Positions 30,421 through 54,772 of a stretch of 64,000 bases of DNA are shown in pieces. The notes below the pieces were generated by a model. The model was not told the DNA's origin. It saw only the letters and a program-made list of their open reading frames with translations, and did not search any database. The stretch's first letter is position 1. Each line of letters starts with the position of its first letter. The DNA is taken from positions 32,001 through 96,000 of IMG/VR virus record IMGVR_UViG_3300028833_000075. One strand, given 5' to 3'. Origin of the DNA: a virus (lineage: Duplodnaviria; Caudoviricetes). A program made the translations under genes and the position numbers.

Positions 30421-31503
30421 TTATGCGAATGTCGGTTTGAAATAGAATGACAGTTTATCTAAACTGATAGATGTAACGGGAACCACTTCGAGTTGATTCA
30501 TACTCATAATTGTGGTTCTGAAAGGTTTCGTAATTGCGCTGATGCCGTCTACTGTTAACGTATGAATATCCGGCTGATCCGTGATTTTACGCCAGCCGTT
30601 AACATAAATATATTTGTCGATATAATCTTCTTCCAGTTTATTTGATACGGTAATATTGTTTCCGCTGTTACCTGTGACATAGATTTTTCTATTGGCAGGA
30701 TAGTCAGGAGCAAGTTCAATAAAACCATAATCGTGATAAAGGAACGCAAGAGAAGCATCACTGCCGTCTTCAAGGGATAATATTGTTTTGCCGCTGATGC
30801 CATCCACGGTAACGACTTTATTTACGTTTGTCGTTTTTGCTTTCGACATAGCAACAAGTTTCATTTCTTGATCGGTTGTTTTGTTTCTGATGATAACACC
30901 TGCTCCGACATCTCCGGCAGCGATAACAGTTAAAGCTGCCCTTTCCGTTCCAGGGTTGCCAAGCGTAAACGAAAATGTATTAGGTTTAGTAAGATTGATA
31001 TTCGTGAACGCTTGATCAGGAGCCATGCCGTCAGTGTCGTACAGGGCTGAGTTTTCCATTATGTTTTCGTGATTCGGTGTTAACCGAAGGCTATACAAAT
31101 CATCACATCTTGCAAAAGGGTAATATGCTTTCATTGTTATTTTGATAATTCCGTTCAGATAGTTGGATAATTCGTGATCATCGTATTCGGTTACGGTTGC
31201 ATAATAATAACACCATGGCCGCCGCTTAAATATCAGTTTTCCGGATTTTCCAACTTTAAACAGATGTTGAATTTTTGTAAATAAGCCTTTGTCAATTACA
31301 GTTTCTTCGAAAAAACACCGCAAGATAAACTGTTTAGGATCTCTGGATGCTCCGTAAAAATATCCACCGTTATGTCCGTCGAACGTCTCTTCGTAAACTT
31401 TTGTAGTTGCAGAACCGTATACATATGTATCTTCCAGTTCAGGAGCATACTCAAGGCCGACGTCCTGAATGTCTACGCCGCAAAAAGAAAACCCACCTTT
31501 CAC
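30421..31503 (-). CDS. Distal tail protein (Dit)
   Basis: 360 aa immediately after the TMP; GFSFCG start, GKLIF..PWCYY..MKAYYPFA motifs; synteny. Confidence 0.8.
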   Translation of the reverse strand: MKGGFSFCGVDIQDVGLEYAPELEDTYVYGSATTKVYEETFDGHNGGYFYGASRDPKQFILRCFFEETVIDKGLFTKIQHLFKVGKSGKLIFKRRPWCYYYATVTEYDDHELSNYLNGIIKITMKAYYPFARCDDLYSLRLTPNHENIMENSALYDTDGMAPDQAFTNINLTKPNTFSFTLGNPGTERAALTVIAAGDVGAGVIIRNKTTDQEMKLVAMSKAKTTNVNKVVTVDGISGKTILSLEDGSDASLAFLYHDYGFIELAPDYPANRKIYVTGNSGNNITVSNKLEEDYIDKYIYVNGWRKITDQPDIHTLTVDGISAITKPFRTTIMSMNQLEVVPVTSISLDKLSFYFKPTFA

Positions 31504-37600: not shown

Positions 37601-40600
37601 TGGTTGAAGTGCAGTTCTTTCTTCTTGCGTTAATACAGGTCTATCAGTTTTTTCAACAGCTTCATTATATTGACTCTGAATTTTATCACGTTGTTCAGTA
37701 GCCTCTGTTTGTTTTGTCTCTGCAACATTTCTGGTGCGTAAAATTCCTTCATTGTCTTTGTAAACCTCAGTCTTGTCTGCAGGTATGTTTTGAGCTTGAC
37801 GAACGGCTTCTTCGGCGTCTTCAAGTTCTTTCTTTAATTGATTAACACCTGCGGCTTCATATGCCTTTTCCTTTTCAGCTTCAGAATGATACGCGCCTTG
37901 ATTTAATTTTGTTAAAGCTGATCTTGCAATATTAGCTTGCGTTTTTTGTTCAACGTATCCGGTATTATTATATAATCCGGATCTATTAAGAACTCTTCTT
38001 AATTGCGCTATACCATCAGGAGCGTTAAAAGTTCCTGTTTCTTCATCGTATGTACCTACAATTGAATTAAAAACTTCCTGAAAATCAGGATTGTTCATAG
38101 CTAAAGATTGCAAAGCCGTATATGCTTCACTGTTTGTGTTGGCAAAATTCATAAAATCAGTAATATTATCATAATTATCAAGTTGAGATATAATGAAATC
38201 AGCGCTAACAGCAGCTTCATTTTTCTCTTCCCATCCTTTTGGCTGAGAATAAAATTGATTTAATCCTAAGATTCTATTGGGTACAAGCTCATAATCATTT
38301 TTTATTTTTTCTGCTTCTTGGTTAATCTCATCTGCTGCGTCTTTAATGATCTTACCTCCGGCATCAATATAATTTGAAATTGCTAACGTAAGATCTTCAG
38401 GGGCTGCATTTTGAATTTTTTCAAAATTCGGATCGTTCACATCAAATATTTCACTATAATCTACACCTCGAGAAAGATAATCATTAATGACGTCGGTTGC
38501 CATTTTGTTATATCTGCTTTTGTATTCAGCTTGAGCTTGCTCGGGTGTGATACGTTCACCGTTTTTATTATAGTATGATCCACGAGACACCTGATCTAAC
38601 CTGGCTAAACCTTGAGTTTCTGCGCCCTCTAAGTAATCGTTTTCAACTTGCGCCACAAATGAATCGTAATTAAACCCATCAGCTAAACCATAGTGACGAA
38701 CCACGAATTCATCAAGCGTTTCATTTTCTCCTCGTAAAGAGTCTAAATACGATCCAGACATTTTTATTTTATTTGTAACTTCTTCGGGTAAGAGACCTTC
38801 GGTAGATGCTGCAATAATATCACCAATAATAGAACCAGTATCTGCAACATAATGTGCCTCTCCGGGTAAATCACCTTGTTGCGTCGAAAGCCAAGTACCA
38901 TATGCTTGTGATAAAACTCCCAGGTTATATAAAGATATGCTGTTAAGTAATTCCTCATCTTTTGGATCGGACACACCCAAATAGTGGCTTCTGTCATTAT
39001 CAAAATCAATATAATTTCGGTAATAAGTACGAATACCACTTAAAGCATTTTCCATTTCCTCTGTAAATTGTCCGGCATCTTTATATGTTGTTTCAAGATA
39101 ATCTAAAAATCCATCTTCCCAAGTAGTATTTCCATAATAAGAGAACATTTCTCCTAAGTTTATTACTTTATCTCTTTTTGAGCCTTCTCCATTAAAGACA
39201 TCAAGAAAAGTACTTTTAACTTCACCGTTTTCAATGCGGAAATAATTTTGCAATTCTGGAGTTATCTCTTCGTTTCCGTTTTCATTGGTTTCATATAAAA
39301 CAAGAGTGCGTGCAGATTTCTCTGTTTTAGTCGTAAGCTCATCGTTTAACGTTCCGCTTACAAGGTTATCTTTTATGGCTTTCGCTTTTATCTCTTTTTC
39401 TTTTTGCTCTTCTCTGTCTTTAAGATCTTGATAATATTTATCGAGATTATCAGATGAGGTTGTCGATATTTCGCCTAAAAGAGCAATACTGCTTGAAAGA
39501 TCTTTTAATCCGCCGCTGGAATCAGAAATAGATTGTTGAAGCTCATCACTTATTCCGACGTCGACCGCGAAAGATTTTAGGATCTTTCTATATTCATTTA
39601 TCTCATCCTCAGTTTTTGAATTACCCTTTTCGTACAAGACTTTAGCTCTGTCTAAACTGCTTTGTTTGCTGTTTTTACTAAATTCTTTGGCTGTATCTTC
39701 GGTTACTTTTGCATATGTTTTCTTTTCAGATGCAAAAGAAGATGAAGATGAAGGAGATTGAACATTTTGTAAATAAGCTCCTGCTGCAGCTCCAGTCGCA
39801 GCGCCGACAAGAGCGCCAACCCATCCGAATTGTGCACCTTTAATCGCGCCAATTAATCCTAGAATAACCGGGGCTAATAGTTTCATCTGAGACAACCATC
39901 CGACAATCTGACCAAGTCCAGTGATTATATTCGCAATACTTTCAGCAAGAACTTCAAATTGGCCGGTGTCGACCATTTTGTTGACCATTTCATCCCAAGC
40001 TGTACGAACTGTATCGATAGACGCCTGAAGACTATGCATCCGAATTTCATTCTTTTCATCAACAATACCTTCGGATTTTCCAGACAGTTGCATATACTCG
40101 TCGACTTTTCCTTCAGACATTCCCATCATAATCGCTGAGAAGTTTGAATACTGACGAGTGCCTGCAATTGCATTTGCAATTTGTTGCTGCTCGGCATCTG
40201 TCATGCCTTCCCATTTTTGAGACAATGCGTACAATGTGTCGTATGTGGATTTTTTATTACCTTGCTGATCATACATTTCGATGCCTTGTTGCTTAAGTAA
40301 TTTAGCAACAGCAGAGCCCGAAACAGCATTACCATTTTCGTCATAAATAAGTTCGTTTGTACCGATCTTATTCATGCGACCGATAATAGTATTTAATGTA
40401 CGACCTGCAGTATTACCGCCGATCTGGGTTGTAGAAGTAATAGCAGTAAGCATTGAAGCAAGTTCTGCAAAAGTGGTTCCATCTGCAGCCGCTGCAGCAC
40501 CAGCCTTTTCGATACCTTTTTCAATTTCTGATGCATTGGTAGCAGCGCTATCGCCTAAAGAAGTAACAATATCTGCTGCTTGACTTGGATCGGTTACCAA

Positions 40601-43600
40601 TCCGGTATTCATAGCAACAGTAATCAATTTAGTTGCGGCGTTTACATCAGTGCCGGAAACTTTAGAGAACTTGGTAATAACATCCAGTCGTTCATCAACT
40701 TCTTCGTCGCTTAAGCCTTGACGATAAAGAGTTTCGGCAGATTTTGTTATCTCGCCAATAGAAACTTTTAACTCTTTTGCTTTTGCGATTAATCCGTCTC
40801 CCAATGTTGACATTTGCGAATCAGATTTTAAGGTAATCATCTGAATCGATGTCATAGACTTGTCGAATTCTTGAACAAAGCGTTTTGCTTCATTAATCGC
40901 TTTCATAAAAATCTGGCGACCAAGTCTTTGCATGACGCGAGATAATCCAGTATTAATTTTACTGAGTCCCGCAGACATAATAGACGATGCGCCGCCAAAC
41001 TTATTCATCTCGTTAGTTGTATCTTGTATTGCGCTTTTATAACCTGCGATCTTTGTTTCAGATTCTTTAATCTGTCCAGCTAATTGTGCTCCTTCTTTAC
41101 TTTTTTGCTGTTCAGGTGAGAGTTTATTAAAATCTTCACGATAGCGCTGAAGTTTTTCTTCTTCCGCTGTTTTATTTAGATTAAGGGACGCTATCTGCTG
41201 TCCGAGACTAAACCTTTGATCTGCATCGCTTCTAAGTTTGTTGATCAACATAGAGCCGGGTTGACCATATCTATTTCTCCGCCTAACGGCAGCAGCATGT
41301 TCTCTTTGCTGATGAGCAAGATCGTTTTGCGTTTCCATGCGACCAATTTGTTGGTTTTGTATATCAATCGCTCGATTTTGATTAAACATCATGTTTTCGG
41401 CGATTTCATCTTTTCTTCCTGCCCAATCACCATTATAGTATCCATTTAATCTATCATACATATCCTGCATGAATGGCTGTTCAAACGTTCCATCTGGCTG
41501 TTTATATTGCTCTAAAGCCTTCATTTGATTGAATACTTCGAGCCGTTCCTGATCTGCTTGAAGCTGAGCGCCGATTTGCATACGTGCAGTAGGTGTTTCT
41601 ATTTTTGTGAGAGCTTGTTCAATTTCAGATTTTCCAATCTCGGAAACACTTTCTTGCACAGCAGATGAAATAGGTTGAGCATCTGGAGTCTCAGCGGAAG
41701 CTGGAATTTCTGTTCTTACTTGGTCTGCGGTTGCCTGAATAGCCTGTCTTGTACCTTCTGTGATAGCTTCCCCGATTTTTCCTGCATTAGTTGATTGAGG
41801 AACTGGTATTTGTACAGGAGGAATATTCTCTGCAGCCGCAAGACTTGCATCTCTCTCTTTACTTGCAGCAGCCATTCCTTGTTCGTATGTGCTTAATATA
41901 TTTGAACGTTCTGTAGCAAGAGTCTCTTGCTGTTTAGTTAAATCTGCAACTCTTTGTTCTGCGTCTTGAATCTTTTGAGCTCTGTCTCCAGATTGGGATT
42001 TATATGCATCTTCTAATTTTCTTTCAGCAGCAGCTTTTTGGACTTCAATCGCTTCGCGCTGCTCTTGGTTTTTAGCAAGGACCGCGTCTCTGTCCTTTTC
42101 TACATCGTTTATTTCCTTGTTGATTGCGGCTGTTTGTTCTTTTGCAATTATTTCTTTGTTTTCTTTTATCTGAGTATTATATTTATTATTTGCTTCATCG
42201 TTTGCTTTATCTCGATCTTTTTCTGCTTTCTGTAGAGATTCTTTAATCCTTGTTTCTTCTTCTTCTGTAGATTTTATGTTTGTGTCATGTATTTTGCGGA
42301 TGTTTTCTTTTTGCCTTTCAAAATTTTCCGTTCTGTCTGGACTTGAATATTCAGATTTTATTGTTCGTTCCTTTTCGTACAAAGAACTTTCTCTTTTTTC
42401 GTATCTCTCTTTTTCTTCTTCATATGCCTTAGTTTTTAATTCGTTTTCAGTTTCTATTCTTTGTCTGTATTTTTCATCTGCATATGCTATATCCTTACCG
42501 TGATCTCTATTTGCGGCTTCTATTCTCCTTTGTTTTTCATATTTATCGTAACCTGTATAATCATCATTTTCTATTCTAGCAAGTTTTTCTTCGAGAGATA
42601 AATCGGCAGCAGTATAAGCTTTTTCTCTTCGTTCTTTATATGTTTCTAACGCATTATTATAATTATCTTCGATTTGTTTCTCGTTTTCTATATTTTTTCT
42701 ATCATTATCTTTCCGTTGAGCTTCAATGTCAGCTAAAGCATCATTTAATCCCTTTGTTTCTTCGCTTTCTATCATTGATAAAGCTTGTTGTTTCGACGAT
42801 TCTTCTTGAGCTTTATAATTATTTATTTCAGTTAATCTATCTTTTAATGGTTTAATTGTTTCTTCGTATTTTGCATTGTTTTCTGCAATAGATTTATCTC
42901 TTATCGCTTCAGCTTTTTTATTGGCTTGTTCAAGCTCTGGGCTAGTTTCTGCCTTTTCTTTTTCTTTAATCCCGTTGAGTTTCTTTTGTGCATTTTCTTT
43001 AATTTCTTGATCAGATTGTTGTAAAGCTTTGAGTTGATCATCAAATGTTGTCGGCAACGTCCCTTTTTCAGCAGCAGGTAAAGCTCTAAGCTCATCTAAA
43101 CTTTTCTGCGCAGCGGCAAGATTCGTTGCAACTTCAGCCTCTTTTGGAGTAAGCTCACTAAGCTGGGAATCCCTGCTTGCTTGAAGTGCTGCAGCTTTTG
43201 CGTCGTATGAAGTTTGAGCTTTTGCTTTTGCTTCTTGGATAGACACTTGCCTGTCTGCTTCAGCTTTTTCTTGAGCTGCTTTAGCTTCTTCAGCTCTCTT
43301 TTGTTCCGCCTCTAAAGCGGCCTGTCGTTCTGCTTCGGCTTTTTCTTGAGCGATTCTGGCTTCTTCAGCTTTTCTTTGTTCTTCTTCCAGTCTCTGTTGT
43401 TCAGCAAGACGTGCTTGTTCTTCTTCCTGTAAACGTTCTTCTTCTGTTTTCTGCGGAGGAAGTTGTTGAGAGGGAAGGGGAGTAGTAGCAGGAACGCCAA
43501 GAGCTTTAGATGTGCTAAGACGATCGATAAGTGCCTGTGCGTTCATCGCGACTTTAGACCTTGAAACTAAACTTTCTTGTTTTAATTCTGTTCTATAATC

Positions 43601-46600
43601 TTCTTCGGTTGCTGAATTAAGCATTTCAGTTAATCGGTTGTAGTCATCTTCTTTTATAATGTCGTTTTGATGCAGATTTTCTAATGAGGTTAAAATCTGT
43701 TCTCTCTGTTGATTGAAGGCGGCAACTCTTAAAGATATTTTTTGATCAATTGGCGCATTTTTTCCCATTGAGGATACGAGAATTTTTTCAACATCCATTT
43801 GCATGGATTTTGTTGCATCTTCAGAAAGTATTTTCTCATAACTTTCTTTCATCTCTTCGCTTGCTTGAAGTTGTTGCTCAGCTTCTTTTAATGCCTTTTC
43901 GTCTTCTGGTGTTTTATTTTCTTTGTTATACAAAAGATTGTATGCAGCTTGCGCACGTTCAAAATCTTCATCAATTGATTTTCGTTCATTTAAAATACGT
44001 TTAGCACTGCTTGTTGTATTATGTGTATATATTTTCTCAGCAATGCTTTCGGAAAAGTTTGCAAGATCTCCTGTCGCTCCAGCTCGAAGTGTTTTTTCAA
44101 ACTGTTCGCGGCCTGTGTTAAAACTAGTTTGAAATAGTGCAATTTCATCAGGCGAAGCATTACGGTTGCGCATCCTTGTTGTAACATCCATATATCCTTC
44201 AGGAGAATACATATATGCATAATTATCCCACTGAGACCTGCTTGGTCTTGTTTTATCATATCCTAACTCTCTTGAACGAAGTTTGTTTTGTATCGCCTCG
44301 TAACGTTCAATTTGCTCATCAATGTAATTTCTATTGGAAAATGCGCTTGTTAATTCTCCGGTATTTTGTACTCCTACATTAACCCCGTTCGGTATTGGTG
44401 CACCGGCTGCAGTAGCGGCCTGTGTGATAAACTCCGAAGACAACGGGCCACCAGAAGGCATTTGACGAACAGATCCACGGACAACATTTGGAAGTAAATA
44501 AGGATCGAAATATCCATTAAGAATTTCTCCTAATATGTCTTTTTTCCCAGCCAAAGGTATTATTGCACTGCTAATTTTTGCCATTCGGTCTTCAACCGAT
44601 GAAACGAGTTCTGGTGTTACTTCTATTGATTGAGTTTCCAATTTTCCGCCTTTATAAGAAATAATTCCAGCTCTTTGTGCGCCATTGGCACCTGCATAAA
44701 CAACAGGCTGATCAAATTTGTGGACGCCGATCAACGAAGAGTCGTGATCGAATCCATTCTTTAAGTCCCAGTTCGTTCGAACACCATTTGCATCTTCCGA
44801 AACAACATCGACATAGCCAATGGTTTTTAATCGATTTCCGTTTTGGTCCGTTCCAAAATTTGGATGCACAACTCCGCCATTCTTTTCCGTTCCTACAATC
44901 TTTTGGTCTCTAAGTAAATTCGGGAATTGCTTTGCCGCTTCAACAATTTCTTTATACCGTGTTTTTACTTTTTCGTCATACAAAGGACTATCTTCTGTTG
45001 GAAGTTCAGGGAATAATTTCTGACGAGTATCTGGATCCTGCCAATTCTTCAGATAATTATTTACATAATCGACCATTTCTTCAGGAGTTCCATAATCCTC
45101 ATTATTCTCCATTCTTCTTTTTGCCCAATATGATTGAGTTTCATGAAGAGCTGTACCGAGTAATTGAATAGGTGTTGTAGGTTTTTGCTCGTTTTCTATA
45201 TATTTTTTATACCAATTAAGCGGACCTGCTGTTTCTTTTTCTATAGAATGAAGCTGCGACCATGAAAAATTCCTGCTAAGTAAATTTTGAATTTGTTCCG
45301 ATGTGACTGCTTTTTCAGCGCTTGCTTTTTGTGCAGCCAACAAAGCTTCATCTCCGCCTGAAATAGCGTTCATTCTTGCTTTAATTGCATCTTGTTCTGC
45401 ATTAAAACTTTGATCAAATAAGCTTGTTTCTCCTGTAACTCTACCTTTAGCTAAGCCAGAAAACGGAATAAATCCTTCTCCTCTTAATTTTGCTTGTTCT
45501 GTTAATCCAAATTCTTTTAAATGACGCATCCGTCCGCGTTGAAATTGCACATCATGTAATTGATCCATCCAAGAATTTATTTTATCTTTATTTCCGGGTT
45601 CTGTTATTTTTGTTTTTTGAAGTTCCGTATTAACAAGCGTTTCCCAATTTGCCAGATAACCAAGCATTTCATCTTCGTCTTTTTGAGACACAAACTGAGC
45701 GCGGTTTGATACAAATTGAGCCATTACTTCATTGTTTTTTCTTAAATATTTTGCTTTGGCTAAATCTACAGGGTTTTCAGAGTTTTCTAAATTTTTTATT
45801 CCTTGTAAGTGTTCTTGCATTTGGATGAATTGATTAATAATATTATCGCTATAAGGATTATCCATACCTGCAGCAATAGCACTTGTCGTTAAATTCGAAT
45901 ATCTTGATGGGAAGTTGACTTGAGAAAAATCTTTAACCTTTGAAAAATCTCCTTCTTCTATAGCTCCTTGCAGGTTTTTAAACATACGAACATAAGGAGT
46001 TCCCATTTTTCTGGCTTGATTTGCAGAATGTGACCATTTTGCAAGAATTCCTGTCTTAGCAAAAGTTGTGTCGATATCATACATTGCCCGAAGATCAACG
46101 CCTGCTTGTTGTGCAAAGCGAGCCCACTCCGGATCACTCCAATTTCCCTGGGCTAAAGCATCGTTAGCGTTAGAGACGGCCGCCATATCGAAAACAGAAG
46201 CAGCTTTTCTATATAGAATGTCGGCATAATCAGAAGCTTGTACTTTTCTGGCTTTTCCGTTTTCTGTAAGTGGGATATCGTCGTCACTTTTAACGGACGT
46301 ATTTAGTTTTTCAATATTTTTTCCTCTTGATTCATACGTGCGCTTTACGGTTTCGGCTAACTTTTTTCTAACAGCTTGAATTGTATCTCCGTCAACATCT
46401 CCACCGCCCATCTTTTTTATCGTATTCATGTTGACTATCATTGCATCTCGGCTCATTTGATATTTATCAAGCGCATCAATATACTCTTTTGAATTAAGTA
46501 ATTCAAACTGTTCTCCGAGATTATTAGGATATCTCCATCCGCCAAGTTCAAGTGTATCTGCCCATGAAGCTAAAGCGACTGCATCTGCGTCGCCTTTTCC

Positions 46601-49324
46601 TTTCAAACTCAACGCGTTAGCAAGATGTGTATTTTTAGGTCGTAATTTTACTTTTTGCTTGCCCGCAATCGCAGAAATTAATTCAAAAGGATTGTTTAAT
46701 GCTAACGCATTTATAGCGTCGCCTTTTGAATATAAACGTTGATTACGTCTATCGTCCATAGCTTTTAAAATTGCATCATCTACTCGCTTTCTAGCTTCCG
46801 GATCTGAAAAAAACAAACTTTTATCTTTTTGAACTCTTTGAGCGAGCGGATCGTCCGGGTTTGAGAACAACATATCTATTGTTTTGGCCGGATTTGTTCT
46901 AAGTGTTTGGATGTATTCATTCCATTTTTTGTTATTGCTTTCGATTTCTTCCGGCGTCAAATCTAAGTTTTGCGTCACTTGTCTTGAAATAGAATCAGTT
47001 TTACTTAAAAACCCTTTATCTGTTTCTACTCCATACATTCCGCCAACCATATCCAAAACATCAAAAAATCTATCTTGAATTGCAGAATGTCCTAAGTTTT
47101 TATAAAAAGGAGTTTTATTCATTGAAACATCAATAGCAGCTTGATATTTCAACAAATCAACAAAATCCTCATCAAATGTTTTTAATCCATTGCTTTTATA
47201 AGCGTTTCTTACTGCTTCAATCCCTTTTTTGTTATACAGCTCCTTCATTTCTTTTGGTGCGTTCCATGCAGGAACCATAAATTCATCAATGTCGCCATAT
47301 ACATCTCGAATCATTTTTTGAAAATCCACCTGCATGGCAGAACCTTTAAATCCTGCAGAACGAACGGTCATTGCTTTAGCTGGAAGATAACCCGGCATAA
47401 CCATCATTCCACCGTCAAATCCGGTGATTGAATTAAAATCGACAAATGCGGTATCATTCTTCGCTGGCATTTTGCCGCCCAAAGAACTAAATGGGACAGC
47501 TGGAGTATGTAAACGATTTCTTGCGTCAATTGGTTTATTTAAGTCTTTTACTGTAATAAATTCTTCATCATCACTAACAAGATTCTTAAAAATATCAACG
47601 CCATATTTATCAATAAATTGACTTGCTTTTTCGATATAGGCGGATTCTTCCGCTAAATCTATTATTCCGTTTTTATGAATTCCGGTTGGAACATATGTTC
47701 CATGTTCACCATGATTTATTGTCGGATATGAGAATGTGTTTCCACCTGGCGTTTGAATCGTTTTGCTGTTTTTCTCACTGAACAACTCTGTGACAAAAGC
47801 CATAGTTTCAGCATTTGGTTTTACTCTTCCGTTCTCGAAAACAAGATCGCCGTTTTGATTTTTTTCAAATAAACGATCTGTTAAATCAAGTTGAAGCATT
47901 TTACGTGGACCTGAATCAGAACCAAATGAGTTATGCCCAGACATACCTAATAAATTTGTATATATCGAAGAAGAAATCATTCGGTTAACAGATTTGCCTG
48001 CTGCTCTATCGTTATATGCAAATTCACGTCCTGCTTTATCGTCAAGGATTACGCCATTTTTCAAGTCATCTAATGTTAAAGACATGATTTGGAAATAATC
48101 TGGACGAACAGATACAGGCGAATCTACAGCTACTGAATTATCTATTGACCTGCCATATTTTCTTGGTTTATCAACGTACAAAGGCTGATAAATTGGAATT
48201 TTTTCAAGATCTCTTAATGCGCCATATACTTCTGTTACTGTTCTTGATGTTTTTCCCGCCATTGCAATTTGTTCATGGTCGTCAGAATTCAATAACGAAT
48301 GTCGATGCATCGGTGCCCCTTCTAGAGCAGGCCGAAGAATGTCTCTGTCCAAAAACCCTAACGCTGTCGCATACTCACTTTCTTTTATAGGTGTTTTTGG
48401 CATTATAAGTTGACCAGCTTTATTGTCAATTGTTCCTCTTCGAGCAACGCCAGCCATTAACAGAGCGTTTTCTAATGCAGGATATTTGCCTGCTGCATTT
48501 TTTAAGATATCATAATCTTCTTCAGACATATTTCCAGCATACGCCTTACGTCTCGATCCAACAGAATAAGGAACTGAAGTAGGCACATCTGGAAAATTGC
48601 GATACTTTTCTGGCATTCTTTCTTTATACGTGGAATACTCAGGAAGAATAGAAAGTCTTTTTATTGTTCCTTTTGATTTATCAATTGCCGATTGATAAAA
48701 ATCTTCTCTTGCAAAAGAAGGCGTTACCATATTGATAACACCTTGAAGTAATTCAGATACCTGGTCGTCGGAAAATCCAAATTGTCCTGCAATTGCGTCC
48801 ATACCTTTTTTAAAAGGTGCGTGAGATTTTAGTATTGATTCGTAAGCGCTATTTGTTTGTGGCCCCATAGACCTATAAGTTCTTGTAATAACATCGGAAG
48901 CTGCCCTCGAAATATCTGCAAATTCAGATTCAAACCCTTTTGTCATAGACTTTGGGATTGATGTAAACATTTTCCCAAAGTTACCAGAAGTAGAAAATAA
49001 AGTTTCAACGCTTGAAGATAAAAACGCAATACCCTGCTTTAATCCTGAAATCATATCAGAACTAATCGAACTGCCTAAGCCCAAATCTTTCATTGTTGAA
49101 ACAAGTGCATCCCGCTGCTGTTTTATTGTAGAAAGCATGGAATCAACAAAAGAAGACATCATAGCAGGAGCATCTTCCGGTAAAAACGATTTTTTATCTA
49201 TGTTTGCTAAAGAAAATGATTCATCTAATGATTCAAGTTGTGTTTTACATGAATTTAATTCTCCAGCATCAATTGGATTAAGTTTAGGATTAATTTCAAT
49301 TTCAATTGCCATAAATTTACACAT
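31634..49324 (-). CDS. Giant multidomain tape measure protein with N-terminal two-barrel RNA polymerase-like and PD-(D/E)xK nuclease-like domains
   Basis: 5896 aa between the tail chaperones and Dit. TP901-type core (EFDKSMTSIQMIT..LYRQGL..AGRTLNTII..IAGTRQ) at ~40000-40900, hydrophobic G/A-rich segment ~39775-39880, C-terminal FKEGGYVDYTGPAWVDG..PEAFL motif. The start may be ATG 49312. Confidence 0.9.
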   Translation of the reverse strand: MCKFMAIEIEINPKLNPIDAGELNSCKTQLESLDESFSLANIDKKSFLPEDAPAMMSSFVDSMLSTIKQQRDALVSTMKDLGLGSSISSDMISGLKQGIAFLSSSVETLFSTSGNFGKMFTSIPKSMTKGFESEFADISRAASDVITRTYRSMGPQTNSAYESILKSHAPFKKGMDAIAGQFGFSDDQVSELLQGVINMVTPSFAREDFYQSAIDKSKGTIKRLSILPEYSTYKERMPEKYRNFPDVPTSVPYSVGSRRKAYAGNMSEEDYDILKNAAGKYPALENALLMAGVARRGTIDNKAGQLIMPKTPIKESEYATALGFLDRDILRPALEGAPMHRHSLLNSDDHEQIAMAGKTSRTVTEVYGALRDLEKIPIYQPLYVDKPRKYGRSIDNSVAVDSPVSVRPDYFQIMSLTLDDLKNGVILDDKAGREFAYNDRAAGKSVNRMISSSIYTNLLGMSGHNSFGSDSGPRKMLQLDLTDRLFEKNQNGDLVFENGRVKPNAETMAFVTELFSEKNSKTIQTPGGNTFSYPTINHGEHGTYVPTGIHKNGIIDLAEESAYIEKASQFIDKYGVDIFKNLVSDDEEFITVKDLNKPIDARNRLHTPAVPFSSLGGKMPAKNDTAFVDFNSITGFDGGMMVMPGYLPAKAMTVRSAGFKGSAMQVDFQKMIRDVYGDIDEFMVPAWNAPKEMKELYNKKGIEAVRNAYKSNGLKTFDEDFVDLLKYQAAIDVSMNKTPFYKNLGHSAIQDRFFDVLDMVGGMYGVETDKGFLSKTDSISRQVTQNLDLTPEEIESNNKKWNEYIQTLRTNPAKTIDMLFSNPDDPLAQRVQKDKSLFFSDPEARKRVDDAILKAMDDRRNQRLYSKGDAINALALNNPFELISAIAGKQKVKLRPKNTHLANALSLKGKGDADAVALASWADTLELGGWRYPNNLGEQFELLNSKEYIDALDKYQMSRDAMIVNMNTIKKMGGGDVDGDTIQAVRKKLAETVKRTYESRGKNIEKLNTSVKSDDDIPLTENGKARKVQASDYADILYRKAASVFDMAAVSNANDALAQGNWSDPEWARFAQQAGVDLRAMYDIDTTFAKTGILAKWSHSANQARKMGTPYVRMFKNLQGAIEEGDFSKVKDFSQVNFPSRYSNLTTSAIAAGMDNPYSDNIINQFIQMQEHLQGIKNLENSENPVDLAKAKYLRKNNEVMAQFVSNRAQFVSQKDEDEMLGYLANWETLVNTELQKTKITEPGNKDKINSWMDQLHDVQFQRGRMRHLKEFGLTEQAKLRGEGFIPFSGLAKGRVTGETSLFDQSFNAEQDAIKARMNAISGGDEALLAAQKASAEKAVTSEQIQNLLSRNFSWSQLHSIEKETAGPLNWYKKYIENEQKPTTPIQLLGTALHETQSYWAKRRMENNEDYGTPEEMVDYVNNYLKNWQDPDTRQKLFPELPTEDSPLYDEKVKTRYKEIVEAAKQFPNLLRDQKIVGTEKNGGVVHPNFGTDQNGNRLKTIGYVDVVSEDANGVRTNWDLKNGFDHDSSLIGVHKFDQPVVYAGANGAQRAGIISYKGGKLETQSIEVTPELVSSVEDRMAKISSAIIPLAGKKDILGEILNGYFDPYLLPNVVRGSVRQMPSGGPLSSEFITQAATAAGAPIPNGVNVGVQNTGELTSAFSNRNYIDEQIERYEAIQNKLRSRELGYDKTRPSRSQWDNYAYMYSPEGYMDVTTRMRNRNASPDEIALFQTSFNTGREQFEKTLRAGATGDLANFSESIAEKIYTHNTTSSAKRILNERKSIDEDFERAQAAYNLLYNKENKTPEDEKALKEAEQQLQASEEMKESYEKILSEDATKSMQMDVEKILVSSMGKNAPIDQKISLRVAAFNQQREQILTSLENLHQNDIIKEDDYNRLTEMLNSATEEDYRTELKQESLVSRSKVAMNAQALIDRLSTSKALGVPATTPLPSQQLPPQKTEEERLQEEEQARLAEQQRLEEEQRKAEEARIAQEKAEAERQAALEAEQKRAEEAKAAQEKAEADRQVSIQEAKAKAQTSYDAKAAALQASRDSQLSELTPKEAEVATNLAAAQKSLDELRALPAAEKGTLPTTFDDQLKALQQSDQEIKENAQKKLNGIKEKEKAETSPELEQANKKAEAIRDKSIAENNAKYEETIKPLKDRLTEINNYKAQEESSKQQALSMIESEETKGLNDALADIEAQRKDNDRKNIENEKQIEDNYNNALETYKERREKAYTAADLSLEEKLARIENDDYTGYDKYEKQRRIEAANRDHGKDIAYADEKYRQRIETENELKTKAYEEEKERYEKRESSLYEKERTIKSEYSSPDRTENFERQKENIRKIHDTNIKSTEEEETRIKESLQKAEKDRDKANDEANNKYNTQIKENKEIIAKEQTAAINKEINDVEKDRDAVLAKNQEQREAIEVQKAAAERKLEDAYKSQSGDRAQKIQDAEQRVADLTKQQETLATERSNILSTYEQGMAAASKERDASLAAAENIPPVQIPVPQSTNAGKIGEAITEGTRQAIQATADQVRTEIPASAETPDAQPISSAVQESVSEIGKSEIEQALTKIETPTARMQIGAQLQADQERLEVFNQMKALEQYKQPDGTFEQPFMQDMYDRLNGYYNGDWAGRKDEIAENMMFNQNRAIDIQNQQIGRMETQNDLAHQQREHAAAVRRRNRYGQPGSMLINKLRSDADQRFSLGQQIASLNLNKTAEEEKLQRYREDFNKLSPEQQKSKEGAQLAGQIKESETKIAGYKSAIQDTTNEMNKFGGASSIMSAGLSKINTGLSRVMQRLGRQIFMKAINEAKRFVQEFDKSMTSIQMITLKSDSQMSTLGDGLIAKAKELKVSIGEITKSAETLYRQGLSDEEVDERLDVITKFSKVSGTDVNAATKLITVAMNTGLVTDPSQAADIVTSLGDSAATNASEIEKGIEKAGAAAAADGTTFAELASMLTAITSTTQIGGNTAGRTLNTIIGRMNKIGTNELIYDENGNAVSGSAVAKLLKQQGIEMYDQQGNKKSTYDTLYALSQKWEGMTDAEQQQIANAIAGTRQYSNFSAIMMGMSEGKVDEYMQLSGKSEGIVDEKNEIRMHSLQASIDTVRTAWDEMVNKMVDTGQFEVLAESIANIITGLGQIVGWLSQMKLLAPVILGLIGAIKGAQFGWVGALVGAATGAAAGAYLQNVQSPSSSSSFASEKKTYAKVTEDTAKEFSKNSKQSSLDRAKVLYEKGNSKTEDEINEYRKILKSFAVDVGISDELQQSISDSSGGLKDLSSSIALLGEISTTSSDNLDKYYQDLKDREEQKEKEIKAKAIKDNLVSGTLNDELTTKTEKSARTLVLYETNENGNEEITPELQNYFRIENGEVKSTFLDVFNGEGSKRDKVINLGEMFSYYGNTTWEDGFLDYLETTYKDAGQFTEEMENALSGIRTYYRNYIDFDNDRSHYLGVSDPKDEELLNSISLYNLGVLSQAYGTWLSTQQGDLPGEAHYVADTGSIIGDIIAASTEGLLPEEVTNKIKMSGSYLDSLRGENETLDEFVVRHYGLADGFNYDSFVAQVENDYLEGAETQGLARLDQVSRGSYYNKNGERITPEQAQAEYKSRYNKMATDVINDYLSRGVDYSEIFDVNDPNFEKIQNAAPEDLTLAISNYIDAGGKIIKDAADEINQEAEKIKNDYELVPNRILGLNQFYSQPKGWEEKNEAAVSADFIISQLDNYDNITDFMNFANTNSEAYTALQSLAMNNPDFQEVFNSIVGTYDEETGTFNAPDGIAQLRRVLNRSGLYNNTGYVEQKTQANIARSALTKLNQGAYHSEAEKEKAYEAAGVNQLKKELEDAEEAVRQAQNIPADKTEVYKDNEGILRTRNVAETKQTEATEQRDKIQSQYNEAVEKTDRPVLTQEERTALQPIIGNELLDKIGRYENGDESLINRLITNYGNGINGLTNRDKLAGIKELSGYIQDNKLVGYSKESAKKYLEGFSGAPELLALLTSEEPLTSDQEELLSTLLQQFNNYKNNLEISIEVEGLKALEETGDLLAGTAASVEKLRKGGKIALDEILNIQNNAFATKQQYSQFKNGSTQAEKDEAAMSILGMDSTQFYSNYEANMELAENMADQQRKALGEQLWTQYTNANWSDRNRIQKIARNLGFGLNLRQWTDIGVPDQDWINPATGQKLGYTDLQKASYARKLIRGDASVLEGGANFDKELYNAAYESLGFYGKEYQNRLNSTDAAVRASAAEYKTLAEAEARQAEIDAEEQERLNRAKLGATSFAGALNYANVRYEQNNKAGIAANNLFAQLDGQKVDNVRKLMDVLGQGNADDWKNLLESSDDVRKVFEDLGVAIGENGKLDFSGVTASGEQLDAQFRILAESVANASEAYKKIQEVLTTGESYDRAQEYLKGEGIEEKGFEALSQVTGNQQLAQAVRNARVRYDEQLEEYNAFQRLTFAEQNQYALQHEGVVPQNPGVFDWASELTDQDKEYAKIIMQNLENGGIGLTDYDRYEKLDEILNSQDRNLRGFYKDDTIGAYKDYTQGIEGADMWLAASMALEEYGLKMEDLANLEPGDLFNKAAEAVETYYGSVENAILADKDFKDGLIELKNKAFRPYKKETDEVISRFKQLRGSTKDQLEAQKQMAANRDAFAKATYFKENYGTSKVSNKSLAEYLGWTEEQVKANPLKAKAQLDLEFEADQQAIINDVNAVIESIESEVGDIPIEDFGPHFNINGTYDIGQLEAVAAEATGEAKRVINAIIASLAGTEGSVTFGAFGNGNSVRIASSNIRSAGGGYKGGGGGGGGKSKVDALLEGQQHYVKRREHFVNMSQKAETHYERMNDYQSYINSLNDEMNAQQALYSQYEANMAEMEKMKETVKEGSEDWYKLQESIDSTREAMAGITDTIDEINGKKINITETKQGYEDKPLSHATSMLQLKAQNYMDRGQFESYAVVTRQQIANYRTDIAMNNAQMAEWEDLIKEYEEGSQNWMNVRDKIWEIKEQNAELENKVLEDTHALNEAIVSQIATDLQNAMAPVTHEQNMLSTWGGMYQRNEQFGAYRSTLAQNNDYYQLNVAMYQTAIAELQAQMATLEEGSQAWYNARDAVFEYEEAIATATSSVQENNEAIQESYITELVNSYAQAEDAIAHQINMAKTTAERYDNDNDFANYQNMIREEMNLTNESLDLSRRKLADMEELLNGGALEEGGTQWKDLNKQIFELRETINSTEGAYENLVRQLEQDQLEHIIERFNERDEVAQHNIKMIQFEETRYQNNGELTNQNTMLTRENEEQEKRADLIREQIALLKEQQEVTKPGSENYKKITSEIMKMEEQLESTNQTIDKNTESIKKNVEQIHKIQQTLEQTVDKEIKDRIRLQREMLAGTVNIQDSILAQIRKRYTDEWNLIKKDIERKKQALNEEKNLINERLNARKNAADQEEKYERLAELQRQLGLISADPTRTKEAKELRKQITDLQKELSWDIATKEAEMATQAIDDQINAYSDYTAIYEENLGEMLEDARNFKDEMDVIMNGSFEDYVNYMREHDENYKNATDETRLQMEQGWEDTWKKMKGLTDTYWEEIDVTMASKDTFLEYMKQSQQYLNGSETDRWLLENQWSEMYDNYTKSTIDNASFDHNHEVVDAIDQLKDYTYDVRIADRSYSLGMYSSSLDYMYFRDKSIDPDAVNYDPNDQYSSVTGSYASLYDSYQKQLAKNEEYKIPQIIINAGGGGGGGGSSSNTSTDQSKYYEVYDDRGFRTNYVIKASSPNEAKAKASSSLGKHYSSGGSYYSTKPTWATKIFKEGGYVDYTGPAWVDGTKQKPEAFLNSYDTESLRLMLDSFNYIRTMPLTTFDQIPLGSNEPMISIGDVNVNLYEAKLENDADYDVIAQKVGKAFTKQLSKNGFNLAAYTM
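44600..45280 (-). other. PD-(D/E)xK (RecB/Cas4-like) nuclease domain within TMP
   Basis: FSWSQL (S1354), GTALH (1390-1394), E1480, GYVD (D1506), DLK (1520-1522), QPVVYA (Q1539); numbering from 49324. Confidence 0.75.
45950..47500 (-). other. Double-psi beta-barrel (YonO/QDE-1-like) RNA polymerase domain within TMP
   Basis: FDGG (D637), RSAGFKG (655-661), SMNK (734-737), RYP (931-933), GGGDVDGD (D976-D980, nt 46385-46399), AVSNA (N1052), FAKTG (1088-1092). Confidence 0.8.
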
Positions 49325-49338
49325 CCTTTCTTATATAT

Positions 49339-49367
49339 TTGACATTTGCTTATATTATTGGTAACAT
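49339..49367 (+). promoter_or_regulatory. sigmaA-type promoter for the plus-strand zinc-ribbon gene
   Basis: TTGACA (49339-44), 17-bp spacer, extended -10 TG-n-TAACAT (hexamer 49362-67), then AGGAGG RBS and ATG 49393. Confidence 0.6.
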
Positions 49368-49392
49368 GTATAAAAAACAGGAGGTTAACATT

Positions 49393-49737
49393 ATGGAAAT
49401 TCCAGTTTGCCCCACCTGCGGTAATTCTATTTATATCAAAGAATACGAAAAAGATGGTTGCTATGTTTGCGCATATAAACCAAACGGGGAAGATGGCGGC
49501 ATATGCGGAAAAGTAATTGGTTGTATCTGTAACAGATGCGGCCAGCTTCTCGCAGAAGATAGATTTGGATTAAGGAATGACGTTTATGAATGTAAAATAT
49601 GTGGACAACCTCAATGGGGATACACAGAATACAAAAAATCAAGAAAAGAATTTGAAGACATGTTTTCAGATATGATGAAAAATCTTCAAAAAACACAGGA
49701 TGAACTAAGGAGAAAACTTGAAAGCTATAAAAGATAA
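49393..49737 (+). CDS. Multi-CxxC zinc-ribbon protein with C-terminal coiled coil
   Basis: Start moved to ATG 49393 behind AGGAGG; CPTC, CYVC, CNRC, CKIC; QWGYTEYKK. Confidence 0.75.
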   Translation: MEIPVCPTCGNSIYIKEYEKDGCYVCAYKPNGEDGGICGKVIGCICNRCGQLLAEDRFGLRNDVYECKICGQPQWGYTEYKKSRKEFEDMFSDMMKNLQKTQDELRRKLESYKR

Positions 49738-49790: not shown

Positions 49791-50039
49791 ATGACAGTAT
49801 TCTGTCCGAAATGCAATAGCCGCAACAACAATCCGAAGTATGCAAACGATCATTTTTACATATGCTCAGATTGCGGACATATTATCGGGTATGAATGCCA
49901 CGATAGATTCTACGATTATAATCACCTTGCATTTCTTAACAATGCGTTCGTTTGTAAAGAATGTGGAAAAATACAATGGGGTTATACAGAATATAAAAAA
50001 AAAGGGGAGAGATTGTTAATCTCTCCCCTTGATCGCTAA
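49791..50039 (+). CDS. Multi-CxxC zinc-ribbon protein, paralogue of the preceding gene
   Basis: GAGGTG RBS; CPKC, CSDC, CKEC; same QWGYTEYKK motif. Confidence 0.75.
   Translation: MTVFCPKCNSRNNNPKYANDHFYICSDCGHIIGYECHDRFYDYNHLAFLNNAFVCKECGKIQWGYTEYKKKGERLLISPLDR
49995..50030 (-). terminator. Strong intrinsic terminator (minus strand; possibly bidirectional)
   Basis: AAGGGGAGAGATT/AATCTCTCCCCTT stem followed by a long T-run on the minus strand. Confidence 0.75.
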
Positions 50040-52059: not shown

Positions 52060-54772
52060 TTACTTCTTGTAGTAAGCAGTGCTGTAAGCACCTTCGTCAT
52101 TCCGCTTAGCATCCAGAGCCTGCAGCTCAAAAGAGAACGTTGCCAATAAATGTTCAACGTGGGTCGCTAATCCACGTCCGCCTTTCGGCTGCTCTACGTC
52201 ACCGTAGAAGTTCAGATCATATCTTCACCCTATTTTTAGGGGCTTCCCATTTCGGATCGCTTGATCCTACGTCTTTCGACTGATCGTTAGGCTTTTATGA
52301 ACAAACTTTCTCATAATGATAACCTTTGTATTTTTTATTGAAACGAATTGCTCTTGAAAGATTAGAGATTAGCACACCAAGATAATCAGCACATTCCGTC
52401 ATAGAATTAAATTCTTGACCTGTTTCAACTATACGGATATGAATTTTCGATGCTTCTCTTGCGTTTTTATAATCTTCTTCAGTAAATGCGTGTACAGGAG
52501 GATGCTTTATAGAGTATTCACGCATACGTTTGCACATAGCGTCATATCTATCTTTCGGCATTTTCCTTCCTCTTTGGGATTCACTTATTTTACGTTTTGA
52601 TTCTTCTGAATGGTGTTTGCCTGTCATTCCGTTAGGTTTACCTTTTAATGCATCGCTAATTCTTTTTCTAATTTCAGGTGGATATTCCTGATGTTCTCCA
52701 CCTTCTTTTATGTTGTATCCATATTTATCATTGTTTGTCTGATATTCTTTTATGTATCTTCTTTCAAGTTCCATTGCTTCCTTTTCTGTTTCACATGTCG
52801 TAATGATTTCGTGAATGAAATCATTCCATCCATATTTTTTAATTGCGTGCCAGAAATGTACACAATTTCTATATCCACTTCCGTCGCCATTAAATCTTTT
52901 TGTCCATGGGTCTTGACATGTGATTCCAATATATTTCTTTCCAGTTGTTTTACTGGTATGCATATAAACAGTATACAAAGTATTATCCTCCTATTTATTT
53001 GTAGGAGATGTTGTTCATTTTAGCACGGTAGGTTGTCTCTCCCCTTTACGTCACTTTTCGAATGGCAGAATCAGAGAAAGAGTTTCCCCGTTTAAGGAAG
53101 ATTTTTCAAGCACATTGCTGTGCAGGGTGCCACATACGTTTAGCACTCTTATAGGACGTGTCCATACCCGGAATGCTCGTAATACGAGCGCGGAACACCT
53201 TCACGATGTAGTAACCAACAATGGAGCTTTCGGTGCAGTCGTCGCCAGAGCCGTACACGGGCCAGATGGCTGTACATTCGCCGATAGCAGATTCCTTGTT
53301 GGTGATGATGGCTTCAGAGACTTCCTTCGTGTAGTTGTACACAACATCCACAAAATCAATGTCATCGTCAGCAGAGAAGGTGATCGTCTTGCCGTTGATC
53401 AGATAATGACCAGCGGTCACAGTACCGGACTGTGTGGTAATGGGTTCCAGATTCGCGATGTACACAGAACCCTCGATAGGAGTCTGCAGCAGATTAATCT
53501 GGTGGTTCTGATCGGGTTCATGCCGCTCAGCAGTAGGCAGAGCATAGTTAGCATTAGCCGCATACTCAGTCTTGTTCGCCATTGCAAACAGGTCGGCATC
53601 GAACTTACCCATGATGTTCAGTATGATTCGTTACTTCATACCCGTCACTTACGTGACTGCTCTATGTTGCCATAGAGTTCAGACTATATCTTCACCCTAT
53701 AAAATAGGGGCCAGCCATTTCGAACCACTTGGTTCTACTCCCTTATGGGATAGTCGTTAGACTTTTATGTTGTTGTTTATATATCCAATGATATCCGCCA
53801 GCCGTTTTGCTTCTACCCGTTAAAACACTCGATATCGAACCTTGAGAAGTATTTGACATTTTTGCCGCCATTCCAATTGATGGATAAACAGCACCTGTTT
53901 CAACACAAACGACTTCTTTTCTGTTTTTATTGTTCATTGCAATCTTAATTTTTGATTCTTCAGATAAAACATGAGTTTTACCTATATGAGCGATTCGATT
54001 TTTTTGTTTTGATTCTTCAGATTGTTTCTTACCTAAACAATTTGTATTTCCAGTAGAAGCTTTTCGTATCTTTTCTTTTGTTTCTTCTGATCTTTTTATT
54101 CCAGTTAAAGCGTTTTTAATTTTATTTTTTGTTTCTTCTGAATGTCGTGTTCGAGATCCGCCTGAATCTAGATTATATCCATATCCCATATCAGTTGTTT
54201 TAAACTCTGAAATTAATTGCTTTTCTAAATCAGAAGCTTCTTCTGCCGTTAATCCGGAAGCGTAAATTATATGTTCAAATTCACTCCATCCGTATTTCTT
54301 TACGGCGTTAGAAAAATACTTATTGTGGCTGTAGTTTGTTCCATTATGCCATCTTTCATTTGGCTTTTGACTTGTCAATCCTATATATCGTTTATTGTTT
54401 ACTTTGTTTCGATGGATATACACACAATAATCTCTACTCATTTTCATTCTCTCTTTCATAACAACAACAATTTAGTACGGTGAGTTGCCCTTGTAGGGGT
54501 TTCTCCGTTTAAGCTGGGATTTGTACATATCATTACTGATATGCCCTGCAGTTTTGTTTACAGGTAAAGTTCATAGTAAAGGTGGAACTGCCGGGCAGAA
54601 CAGCCACAGGGAACAGAGACCAACCGGCATTAACATCCAGAGTCTCGATGTTCGCACTAACAGTTGCAGCAGTCAGCTCATCAAACGCATAGGCATGGCC
54701 ATCGCACCGACGGAAAATAACCTTCGGGACATCGGCAACATAGCCTTTAAGCGCAGCATTATAGGTCGCCAT
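52060..54772 (-). CDS. Major tail (tube) protein, three exons: 54772-54560, 53609-53142, 52143-52060; spliced product 254 aa
   Basis: Joined exons are in frame (..TMNFTC|GKFDADLF..DTSYKSA|ATFSFELQALDAKRND..YYKK*); GC-rich codon usage like the capsid gene; position between tail terminator and chaperones. Confidence 0.8.
52144..53141 (-). mobile_element. Group I intron 2 (IA2-like) in tail tube gene
   Basis: P1 GUGCU/GGCAC with U.G at the splice site; P3 CUUCC/GGAAG; R CUAACGAUCA (52281-90) and S AAGAUAUGAUC (52215-25); terminal G at 52144. Confidence 0.9.
52295..52978 (-). CDS. Intron-encoded GIY-YIG homing endonuclease (NUMOD3 repeats, C-terminal HTH)
   Basis: VYMH..KKYIGIT, GYNIKEGG, GKHHSEESKRKISES; lies within intron 2. 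Confidence 0.9.
   Translation of the reverse strand: MYTVYMHTSKTTGKKYIGITCQDPWTKRFNGDGSGYRNCVHFWHAIKKYGWNDFIHEIITTCETEKEAMELERRYIKEYQTNNDKYGYNIKEGGEHQEYPPEIRKRISDALKGKPNGMTGKHHSEESKRKISESQRGRKMPKDRYDAMCKRMREYSIKHPPVHAFTEEDYKNAREASKIHIRIVETGQEFNSMTECADYLGVLISNLSRAIRFNKKYKGYHYEKVCS
53610..54559 (-). mobile_element. Group I intron 1 (IA2-like) in tail tube gene
   Basis: P1 CCUGU(A)/UGCAGG with U.G; P3 CCAGC/GCUGG; R CUAACGACUA (53751-60) and S AAGAUAUAGUC (53682-92); terminal G at 53610. Confidence 0.9.
53743..54459 (-). CDS. Intron-encoded GIY-YIG homing endonuclease (NUMOD3, NUMOD1-like HTH); start may be 54441
   Basis: VYIH..KRYIGLT, GYNLDSGG, HSEETKNKI repeats, TAGGYHW; the 3' end overlaps the intron R element. 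Confidence 0.9.
   Translation of the reverse strand: MKERMKMSRDYCVYIHRNKVNNKRYIGLTSQKPNERWHNGTNYSHNKYFSNAVKKYGWSEFEHIIYASGLTAEEASDLEKQLISEFKTTDMGYGYNLDSGGSRTRHSEETKNKIKNALTGIKRSEETKEKIRKASTGNTNCLGKKQSEESKQKNRIAHIGKTHVLSEESKIKIAMNNKNRKEVVCVETGAVYPSIGMAAKMSNTSQGSISSVLTGRSKTAGGYHWIYKQQHKSLTTIP

Follow-up and report, generated by a model that had tools for sequence, protein, structure and literature searches.

A predicted two-barrel RNA polymerase within the giant tape-measure protein of an uncultured Caudoviricetes phage

A predicted polymerase domain in a giant tape-measure protein

We analyzed a 64,000-nt stretch of DNA (positions 32,001 to 96,000 of the IMG/VR record IMGVR_UViG_3300028833_000075, here called the window) from an uncultured Caudoviricetes phage with a genome of ~150 kb and a GC content of ~40%, a mesophilic composition. 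The window contains an open reading frame (ORF) of 5,896 amino acids (aa) for a giant tape-measure protein, within which there is very probably a two-barrel RNA polymerase domain. A sequence-only reading had proposed a single-chain enzyme of this kind in the protein's N-terminal part, and the predicted fold, the conservation within the family and weak sequence links to YonO all agree with it. On the predicted structure, aa ~440 to 1320 would form a catalytically competent polymerase, presumably active, on the YonO/QDE-1 side of the two-barrel superfamily. The fusion of a polymerase to a tape measure is not new in kind: this one is a sequence-unrelated, YonO/QDE-1-like variant, with a candidate nuclease, of a type described in 2024. 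The gene and the parts of it concerned are as follows.

31634 to 49324, minus strand: giant tape-measure protein gene, 5,896 aa (single unbroken ORF; PF10145 and PHROG tape-measure families)
45365 to 48007, minus strand: predicted two-barrel RNA polymerase domain, aa 440 to 1320
47114 to 47419, minus strand: first barrel motifs (DPBB-B side, where DPBB is double-psi beta-barrel), D637-G638, R655, K660-G661, S734 and K737, in columns invariant or at least 90% conserved
46352 to 46720, minus strand: second barrel (DPBB-A), aa ~869 to 991, with R931-x-P933 and the metal-binding D976-V-D978-G-D980
46049 to 46183, minus strand: helix with AVSNA and YD-x-D-x-x-F-x-KTG motif after the catalytic loop, Y1082 and T1087 being invariant

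All the motifs listed in the sequence-only reading were located in the translation at the residues it gave, counting from the ATG at 49324: FDGG (aa 636 to 639), TVRSAGFKG (653 to 661, with R655 and K660), VSMNK (733 to 737), WRYP (930 to 933), MGGGDVDGD (972 to 980, with DVDGD at nt 46385 to 46399), AAVSNANDALA (1048 to 1058), and TTFAKTG (1086 to 1092). The 45 residues that it had counted from R931 to D976 were also found. Its numbering matches the motifs; however, the true start is likely the second ATG, at 49312, because the spacing to the ribosome-binding site AAAGGA is right there and a gene call in a database, 5,892 aa long, begins at this codon. All residue numbers may then drop by 4.

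Conservation of the active-site residues

When 1.84 billion representative proteins were scanned in full with HMMER, with aa 440 to 1320 as query, 48 relatives were obtained. Roughly 20 of these are giants, 3,899 to 5,923 aa in length, that carry the domain in the same place (residues ~440 to 1350), so that other tape measures with an N-terminal DxDGD domain, a check suggested by the sequence-only reading, do exist with the same layout. Conservation was counted in an alignment of 20 sequences with 81 to 23% identity to the query. In this alignment G638, R655, K660, G661, K737, R931, P933, G973, D976, D978, G979, and D980 were invariant, the DxDGD loop included, while D637 and S734 (18 of 20 each) and K1090 (19 of 20) were nearly so and N1052 was kept in 15.

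Ruprich-Robert and Thuriaux (PMC2919709) list eight residues common to all two-barrel RNA polymerases, which in QDE-1 are D709, R738, K743, R962, P964, D1007, D1009, and D1011. Counterparts of all eight appear in the same order in the fused domain (D637, R655, K660, R931, P933, D976, D978, and D980), seven of them being invariant among the homologues. In order and spacing, the first-barrel residues D637, R655, and K660 match D709, R738, and K743 of QDE-1 (PMC2919709). The distances from R to K (5), from R to P (2), and from R to the first Asp of the metal-binding loop (45) are identical in both proteins, whereas the one from the first-barrel Asp to the Arg is 29 in QDE-1 and 18 in the fused domain. 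The motif series had been described as characteristic of eukaryotic RNA interference polymerases, a fair statement where the eight core residues are concerned (PMC2919709), but the Pfam RdRP model does not match the domain. Across the genome, the pattern [RK]xP-x(20-100)-DxDxD occurred in 3 of 522 ORFs, one of the other two being a second polymerase (see below).

Predicted fold and remote relatives

With the 20-sequence alignment, AlphaFold2 gave a model of the polymerase domain with a predicted local distance difference test (pLDDT) value of 87.7 and a predicted template modeling (pTM) score of 0.81; from the single sequence, the pLDDT was 36.6 and the model unusable. In the alignment-based model, the pair of double-psi beta-barrels that a polymerase of this type needs is predicted and would form one active site. 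The barrels are separated by a folded helical connector of ~130 residues and followed by ~330 residues beyond the second; this connector hints at a QDE-1-like rather than a gp96-like arrangement, judging from the model. Two long helices (model residues 591 to 618 and 626 to 646) lie in the AVSNA/KTG region, a candidate bridge helix/trigger region.

When the model was compared to the PDB by Foldseek, the sole significant matches were maize and Arabidopsis RDR2 and QDE-1 (E values of 1.6e-9 to 1e-5). Next came gp62 of Thermus phage P74, gp64 of P32, gp96 of P23-45, and the virion polymerase of phi14:2, a crAss-like phage (gp66, PDB 6VR4, E value of 0.017). The top BFVD match is annotated as RNA-dependent RNA polymerase (E value of 3e-15). 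Structural comparison of the fused domain gave the following values.

RDR2: 16.4; 503; 4.2 Å
P32 gp64: 15.2; 410
QDE-1: 14.7; 506
P23-45 gp96: 11.2; 388

At the sequence level, the fused domain matched phrog_8308 (E value of 1.6e-5, profile positions 249 to 586 of 847). YonO of SPbeta matches this profile end to end with 1220 bits, and therefore phrog_8308 is the YonO family. The alignment of the family profile to YonO by hhalign extended over 293 columns (E value of 5e-4, probability of 32%, identity of ~21%), and in it the DG, R-x4-KG, K, RxP, and DxDGD motifs line up. By these comparisons, the fused domain appears to be a distant relative of YonO and not a clear member of phrog_8308. For aa 1 to 1500, no Pfam family was matched at an E value of 0.1 or better, Pfam RdRP (PF05183) included, and PDB sequence and profile searches with the fused domain returned nothing meaningful. 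A tblastn search of 50,697 phage records with the fused domain and with a stand-alone homologue (see below) gave no match. A protein-language-model look-up (score of 0.92), in which one neighboring cluster was 60% Pfam RdRP, is a weak lead in the same direction.

Recurrence of the fusion and the adjoining candidate nuclease

The order N-terminal region, polymerase, candidate nuclease, tape-measure core, and C-terminus recurs in ~20 independent metagenomic assemblies, and the fusion is kept in ~20 lineages down to 30% identity. A misassembly, which the sequence-only reading had counted among the possible objections, is not what these assemblies from varied sources show. In a 110-kb metagenomic phage (L002), the polymerase homologue is instead a separate gene of 937 aa (L002:10001-12814) with all the invariant residues kept. 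A tape-measure gene of 1,204 aa (L002:12908-16522) lies directly downstream, and the pair stands in an operon with the SPbeta-type families YonB and YomU_Tube. This split arrangement suggests that the fusion formed within the lineage of the present phage.

The polymerase is followed by a candidate PD-(D/E)XK nuclease domain. In the window, this segment matched the phrog_69 exonuclease (E value of 6e-4) and no Pfam family at an E value of 0.1. Among the homologous segments, 12 of 16 matched PF12705 (PDDEXK_1), with a best E value of 2.7e-12, and the G and D of the GxxD motif were invariant.

Tape-measure identity and neighboring genes

The rest of the protein and the genes that follow it are listed here.

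48008 to 49324, minus strand: N-terminal region, aa 1 to 439, of no recognizable family (no Pfam match; 21 to 75% identity at the same position in giant homologues)
44615 to 45307, minus strand: candidate PD-(D/E)XK (RecB/Cas4-like) nuclease domain, aa ~1340 to 1570 (phrog_69 and the PF12705 matches of homologues)
41225 to 43537, minus strand: E/K/A/Q-rich coiled-coil spacer, aa ~1930 to 2700, seen in the translation
40160 to 40777, minus strand: tape-measure core (Pfam PhageMin_Tail), aa ~2850 to 3055 (PF10145 and PHROG tape-measure families)
39755 to 39907, minus strand: hydrophobic, glycine-zipper-like segment, aa ~3140 to 3190 (Kyte-Doolittle; weak Gly-zipper Pfam match)
30421 to 31503, minus strand: Dit gene, directly downstream of the tape measure (phrog_33 Dit, E value of 7.8e-15)
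24592 to 30405, minus strand: Tal-like tail tip protein, 1,937 aa (Pfam Prophage_tail, E value of 9.7e-14, and YOMG_N)

The ORF matched PF10145 with 58 and 63 bits (cut-off of 33.2), along with several PHROG tape-measure families. Given this core domain, the position just upstream of the Dit and Tal genes, and the hydrophobic segment, the sequence identifies the 5,896-aa ORF as a genuine tape-measure protein. Portal and head genes are located upstream of it. The segment at aa ~3140 to 3190 is the sole stretch of the protein in which a 19-residue Kyte-Doolittle window exceeds 1.6, and it is a candidate membrane-inserting part. The core sits ~1,300 residues after the candidate nuclease domain. 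The ~770-residue coiled coil that separates the enzyme block from the core is absent from all the homologues, where the cores begin ~750 residues earlier; this spacer may make the tail longer or serve as a tether.

Several other genes of the region deserve mention. Two small Cys-rich zinc-ribbon genes (window 49339 to 49737 and 49791 to 50039, both plus strand) lie on the opposite strand between the upstream tail gene and the start of the tape measure; one of them matches the Pfam YjdM and TFIIB zinc-ribbon models, both below cut-off. The upstream tail gene ends in a strong hairpin terminator at ~50000 to 50030. GIY-YIG homing endonuclease genes are found among the tail genes at window 52295 to 52978 and 53743 to 54459, both minus strand (phrog_314, E values of 1e-38 and 1e-39). 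Nine divergent copies of the InlB B-repeat domain (Pfam Flg_new_2, E value of 9e-142) are present in a 1,011-aa protein of the tail region (window 18528 to 21563, minus strand), which is likely a host-binding protein and is a hint of a Gram-positive host. No relative was detected among the 185,579 prokaryote genomes scanned, and therefore no prophage copy or host clue came from them.

A second, free polymerase

Outside the window, the same genome has a free ORF of 1,110 aa, P0050 (genome 99592 to 102924, plus strand; L003:3592-6924), with RFP and DVDGD motifs and a weak N-terminal helix-hairpin-helix match. It matched phrog_8308 (E value of 1e-24) and YonO (BLASTP, 4e-7), while Pfam RdRP reached 23.0 bits against a cut-off of 23.8, making it a clearer YonO relative than the fused domain of the same genome. 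The fused and free families were linked by profile-profile comparison (E value of 6.6e-5, 385 columns), and a PDB search with the free family found nothing meaningful. At ~98 kb, the structural genes and a plus-strand block diverge; P0050 is the first large gene of that block, and it is likely the non-virion partner of the fused enzyme.

Free polymerase-like ORFs were present in four of five related phage records, two of which have two each. In these two (G004, with L013 and L017, and G005, with L014 and L018), the free ORFs are ~1,000 to 1,090 aa long and accompany the tape-measure-fused one, which amounts to three putative two-barrel polymerases per genome.

Around P0050 there is a repeated cassette composed of a GC-rich hairpin, TTTTTTTATTTT, and (T/A/C)ACG, placed ~15 to 35 nt before a ribosome-binding site. 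The eight copies, all on the plus strand (L003:2100, 2419, 2810, 3120, 3380, 6961, 7467, and 10925; genome 98100 to 106925), span 8.8 kb flanking the gene, and the exact 12-mer occurs seven times in L003 versus 0.01 expected. The sites score as intrinsic terminators; they may be terminators, promoters of a phage polymerase, or both, and are a possible target of the fused enzyme. Since the cassette was not found in the five related phage records, its link to the polymerase is unsupported by conservation; in three relatives, too, no equivalent exact repeat was seen around the free polymerase genes. The intergenic region from which the structural genes and the plus-strand block diverge also contains four to five tandem copies of a 13-bp unit (GATGAGTTGATGA-like; L003:2021-2075, plus strand), possibly a protein-binding array, an origin, or a packaging site.

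A proposed role at infection and its alternatives

P23-45 gp96 is a 5,002-aa tape-measure protein with an N-terminal two-barrel polymerase at aa 327 to 1124 (DFDGD at 779 to 783) (Chaban et al. 2024, Nat Commun 15:317, PMC10770324). Virions contain this polymerase within full-length gp96, and it shows activity in vitro; starting from T-rich promoters, it transcribes pre-early genes over ~9 kb, the gene for the non-virion polymerase gp64 among them (PMC10770324). We consider a model like that of gp96 likely as a whole for the present phage, that is, a tape-measure-borne polymerase that is injected and transcribes the first genes; that it is injected and starts transcription seems to us fairly likely by this analogy. 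Early delivery is backed by the gp96 precedent (PMC10770324) and by the free polymerase gene in the same genome. We infer that the fused domain is active, uses DNA as its template, is present in virions and is delivered, and we likewise infer which genes it transcribes.

The whole protein would be incorporated in the tail, its C-terminus lying at the tip and its enzyme block proximal to the head. Because the C-terminus would be at the tail tip, by analogy with other siphophages, the enzyme block would lie beside the leading DNA end and enter last. At infection, the tape measure would be expelled, its hydrophobic part helping to form a channel, and the N-terminal polymerase would enter the cytoplasm together with the leading DNA end or just before it. 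Once inside, it would transcribe a first set of genes without the host RNA polymerase; the free YonO-like gene (99592 to 102924) is probably among them, and its product would then take over. The ends of the record overlap exactly by 127 bp inside coding sequence (G000, 1 to 127 and 150452 to 150578), which indicates a circular assembly of ~150,451 bp; the contig ends thus do not show which DNA enters first.

Some observations weigh against this reading. The fused domain has no detectable sequence similarity to gp96 (BLASTP gave coiled-coil noise, and hhalign aligned the DxDGD loop only, with a probability of 3%), and the functional analogy therefore has no whole-protein homology behind it. Pfam RdRP and PDB sequence searches are blind to the domain, so that its assignment depends on a predicted structure and weak profile matches. 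With its connector and post-barrel residues, the predicted domain may be bulkier than gp96, a consideration for its fit in and passage through a tail tube. In addition, no free polymerase turned up in the closest relative genome (G001, 92% complete).

The alternative that survives best, though we consider it unlikely, is a real polymerase with another job, namely RNA- or single-stranded-DNA-templated synthesis (replication priming, or antisense or double-stranded RNA against host defenses) and not promoter-driven early transcription. The closest folds, RDR2 and QDE-1, belong to RNA-dependent enzymes that also use single-stranded DNA, and the adjoining candidate PD-(D/E)XK nuclease could make single-stranded ends. 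But the characterized bacterial and phage relatives, YonO, according to Forrest et al. (PMC5467207), and gp96/gp64 (PMC10770324), are DNA-dependent transcription enzymes, and a second polymerase of the same superfamily in the genome fits a virion/non-virion pair.

It is also improbable that the polymerase works in the producing cell as a YonO-like late-gene enzyme, either prior to becoming part of the tail or without ever doing so, or is cleaved off in assembly. This would be in keeping with YonO itself, which is reported to transcribe the genes of its own SPbeta prophage (PMC5467207), with the SPbeta-like Pfam families of the virion module (YOMG_N in the window; YonB and YomU_Tube in L002), and with the separate polymerase gene just upstream of the 1,204-aa tape measure in L002. 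However, covalent fusion maintained through such divergent lineages argues for co-delivery, an enzyme expressed late cannot start its own operon, and P23-45 virions contain the polymerase part as full-length gp96 (PMC10770324). That the domain is an inactive relic, structural or length-setting only, deserves little credence: D637 is N in two of the 20 homologues, but R655, K660, K737, R931, P933, D976, D978, and D980 are invariant across sequences 23 to 45% identical, and invariance at such low identity is what purifying selection typically produces at an active site. Finally, an assembly or gene-calling artifact joining a separate polymerase gene, for which the split arrangement of L002 could be invoked, is hardly worth entertaining with 17.7 kb of unbroken frame and the same five-part order in independent assemblies from different sources.

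Comparison with known systems

YonO is the closest relative of the fused domain at the sequence level. According to Forrest et al. (2017, PMC5467207), it is a single-chain DNA-dependent two-barrel RNA polymerase of the Bacillus prophage SPbeta; it is a free protein of 839 aa, separate from any virion protein, whereas the fused domain lies in a tape measure. QDE-1 and RDR2 (PDB 2J7N, 7W82, and 7EU1), only 9 to 13% identical to the fused domain, are cellular RNA-silencing enzymes. In phi14:2 gp66 (PDB 6VR4) and N4 gp50, a polymerase is likewise packaged in the particle within a giant multidomain protein, but these are podovirus proteins ejected from the head and not tape measures. The former is a two-barrel enzyme like the fused domain, while N4 gp50 is T7-like (PMC5512222). 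The paper on polyvalent proteins, a precedent raised in the sequence-only reading, mentions only polymerases of the N4 type and no tape measure (PMC5512222).

That reading knew of no characterized siphophage example, but P23-45 gp96 is one (PMC10770324), in a group that also includes P74-26, G20c, and TSP4. Like P23-45, the present phage carries its polymerase within the N-terminal quarter of a giant tape measure, upstream of a hydrophobic segment, and has a second, probably non-virion, two-barrel polymerase, P0050, in the same genome. The T-rich motif of P23-45 ends right at the start site, and the cassette described above resembles it, although only as a parallel. The differences are numerous: gp96 is in PHROG 23188, whereas the fused domain matches 8308; the fused domain is structurally nearer RDR2, QDE-1, and gp64; its predicted connector is long and folded, whereas gp96 is flat and clamp-less, a shape that its authors tie to passage through the tail (PMC10770324); and the candidate PD-(D/E)XK nuclease follows the polymerase, while a Pfam search of the tape-measure protein found no metallopeptidase domain such as that of gp96. 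The phage itself, with its ~40% GC and SPbeta-like tail genes, is unlike the thermophilic P23-45. In view of the lack of gp96 similarity, the fold, the connector, the nuclease, the missing metallopeptidase, the coiled coil, and the split form in L002, the present fusion looks like a separate lineage, favoring an independent fusion. A broader scenario, which we advance tentatively and consider somewhat doubtful as a whole, is that tape-measure-fused polymerases arose more than once. A YonO-like gene, separate as in L002, would have been fused independently of the Thermus lineage and joined to a nuclease as an injected takeover module, with the eight TTTTTTTATTTT cassettes as its pre-early promoter/terminator units.

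In the literature that we searched, no such fusion was described outside the P23-45 group, and tail-delivered transcription only for this one group of thermophilic phages. A second, sequence-unrelated family in phages of ~100 to 150 kb with SPbeta-like tail genes means that tape measures are perhaps a recurrent vehicle for injecting polymerases and nucleases. It also suggests that very long metagenomic tape measures be searched for enzymes before they are taken as rulers of tail length. Together with the clustered T-rich cassettes, the two polymerases, fused and free, offer a concrete system in which to study the onset of a two-polymerase cascade.

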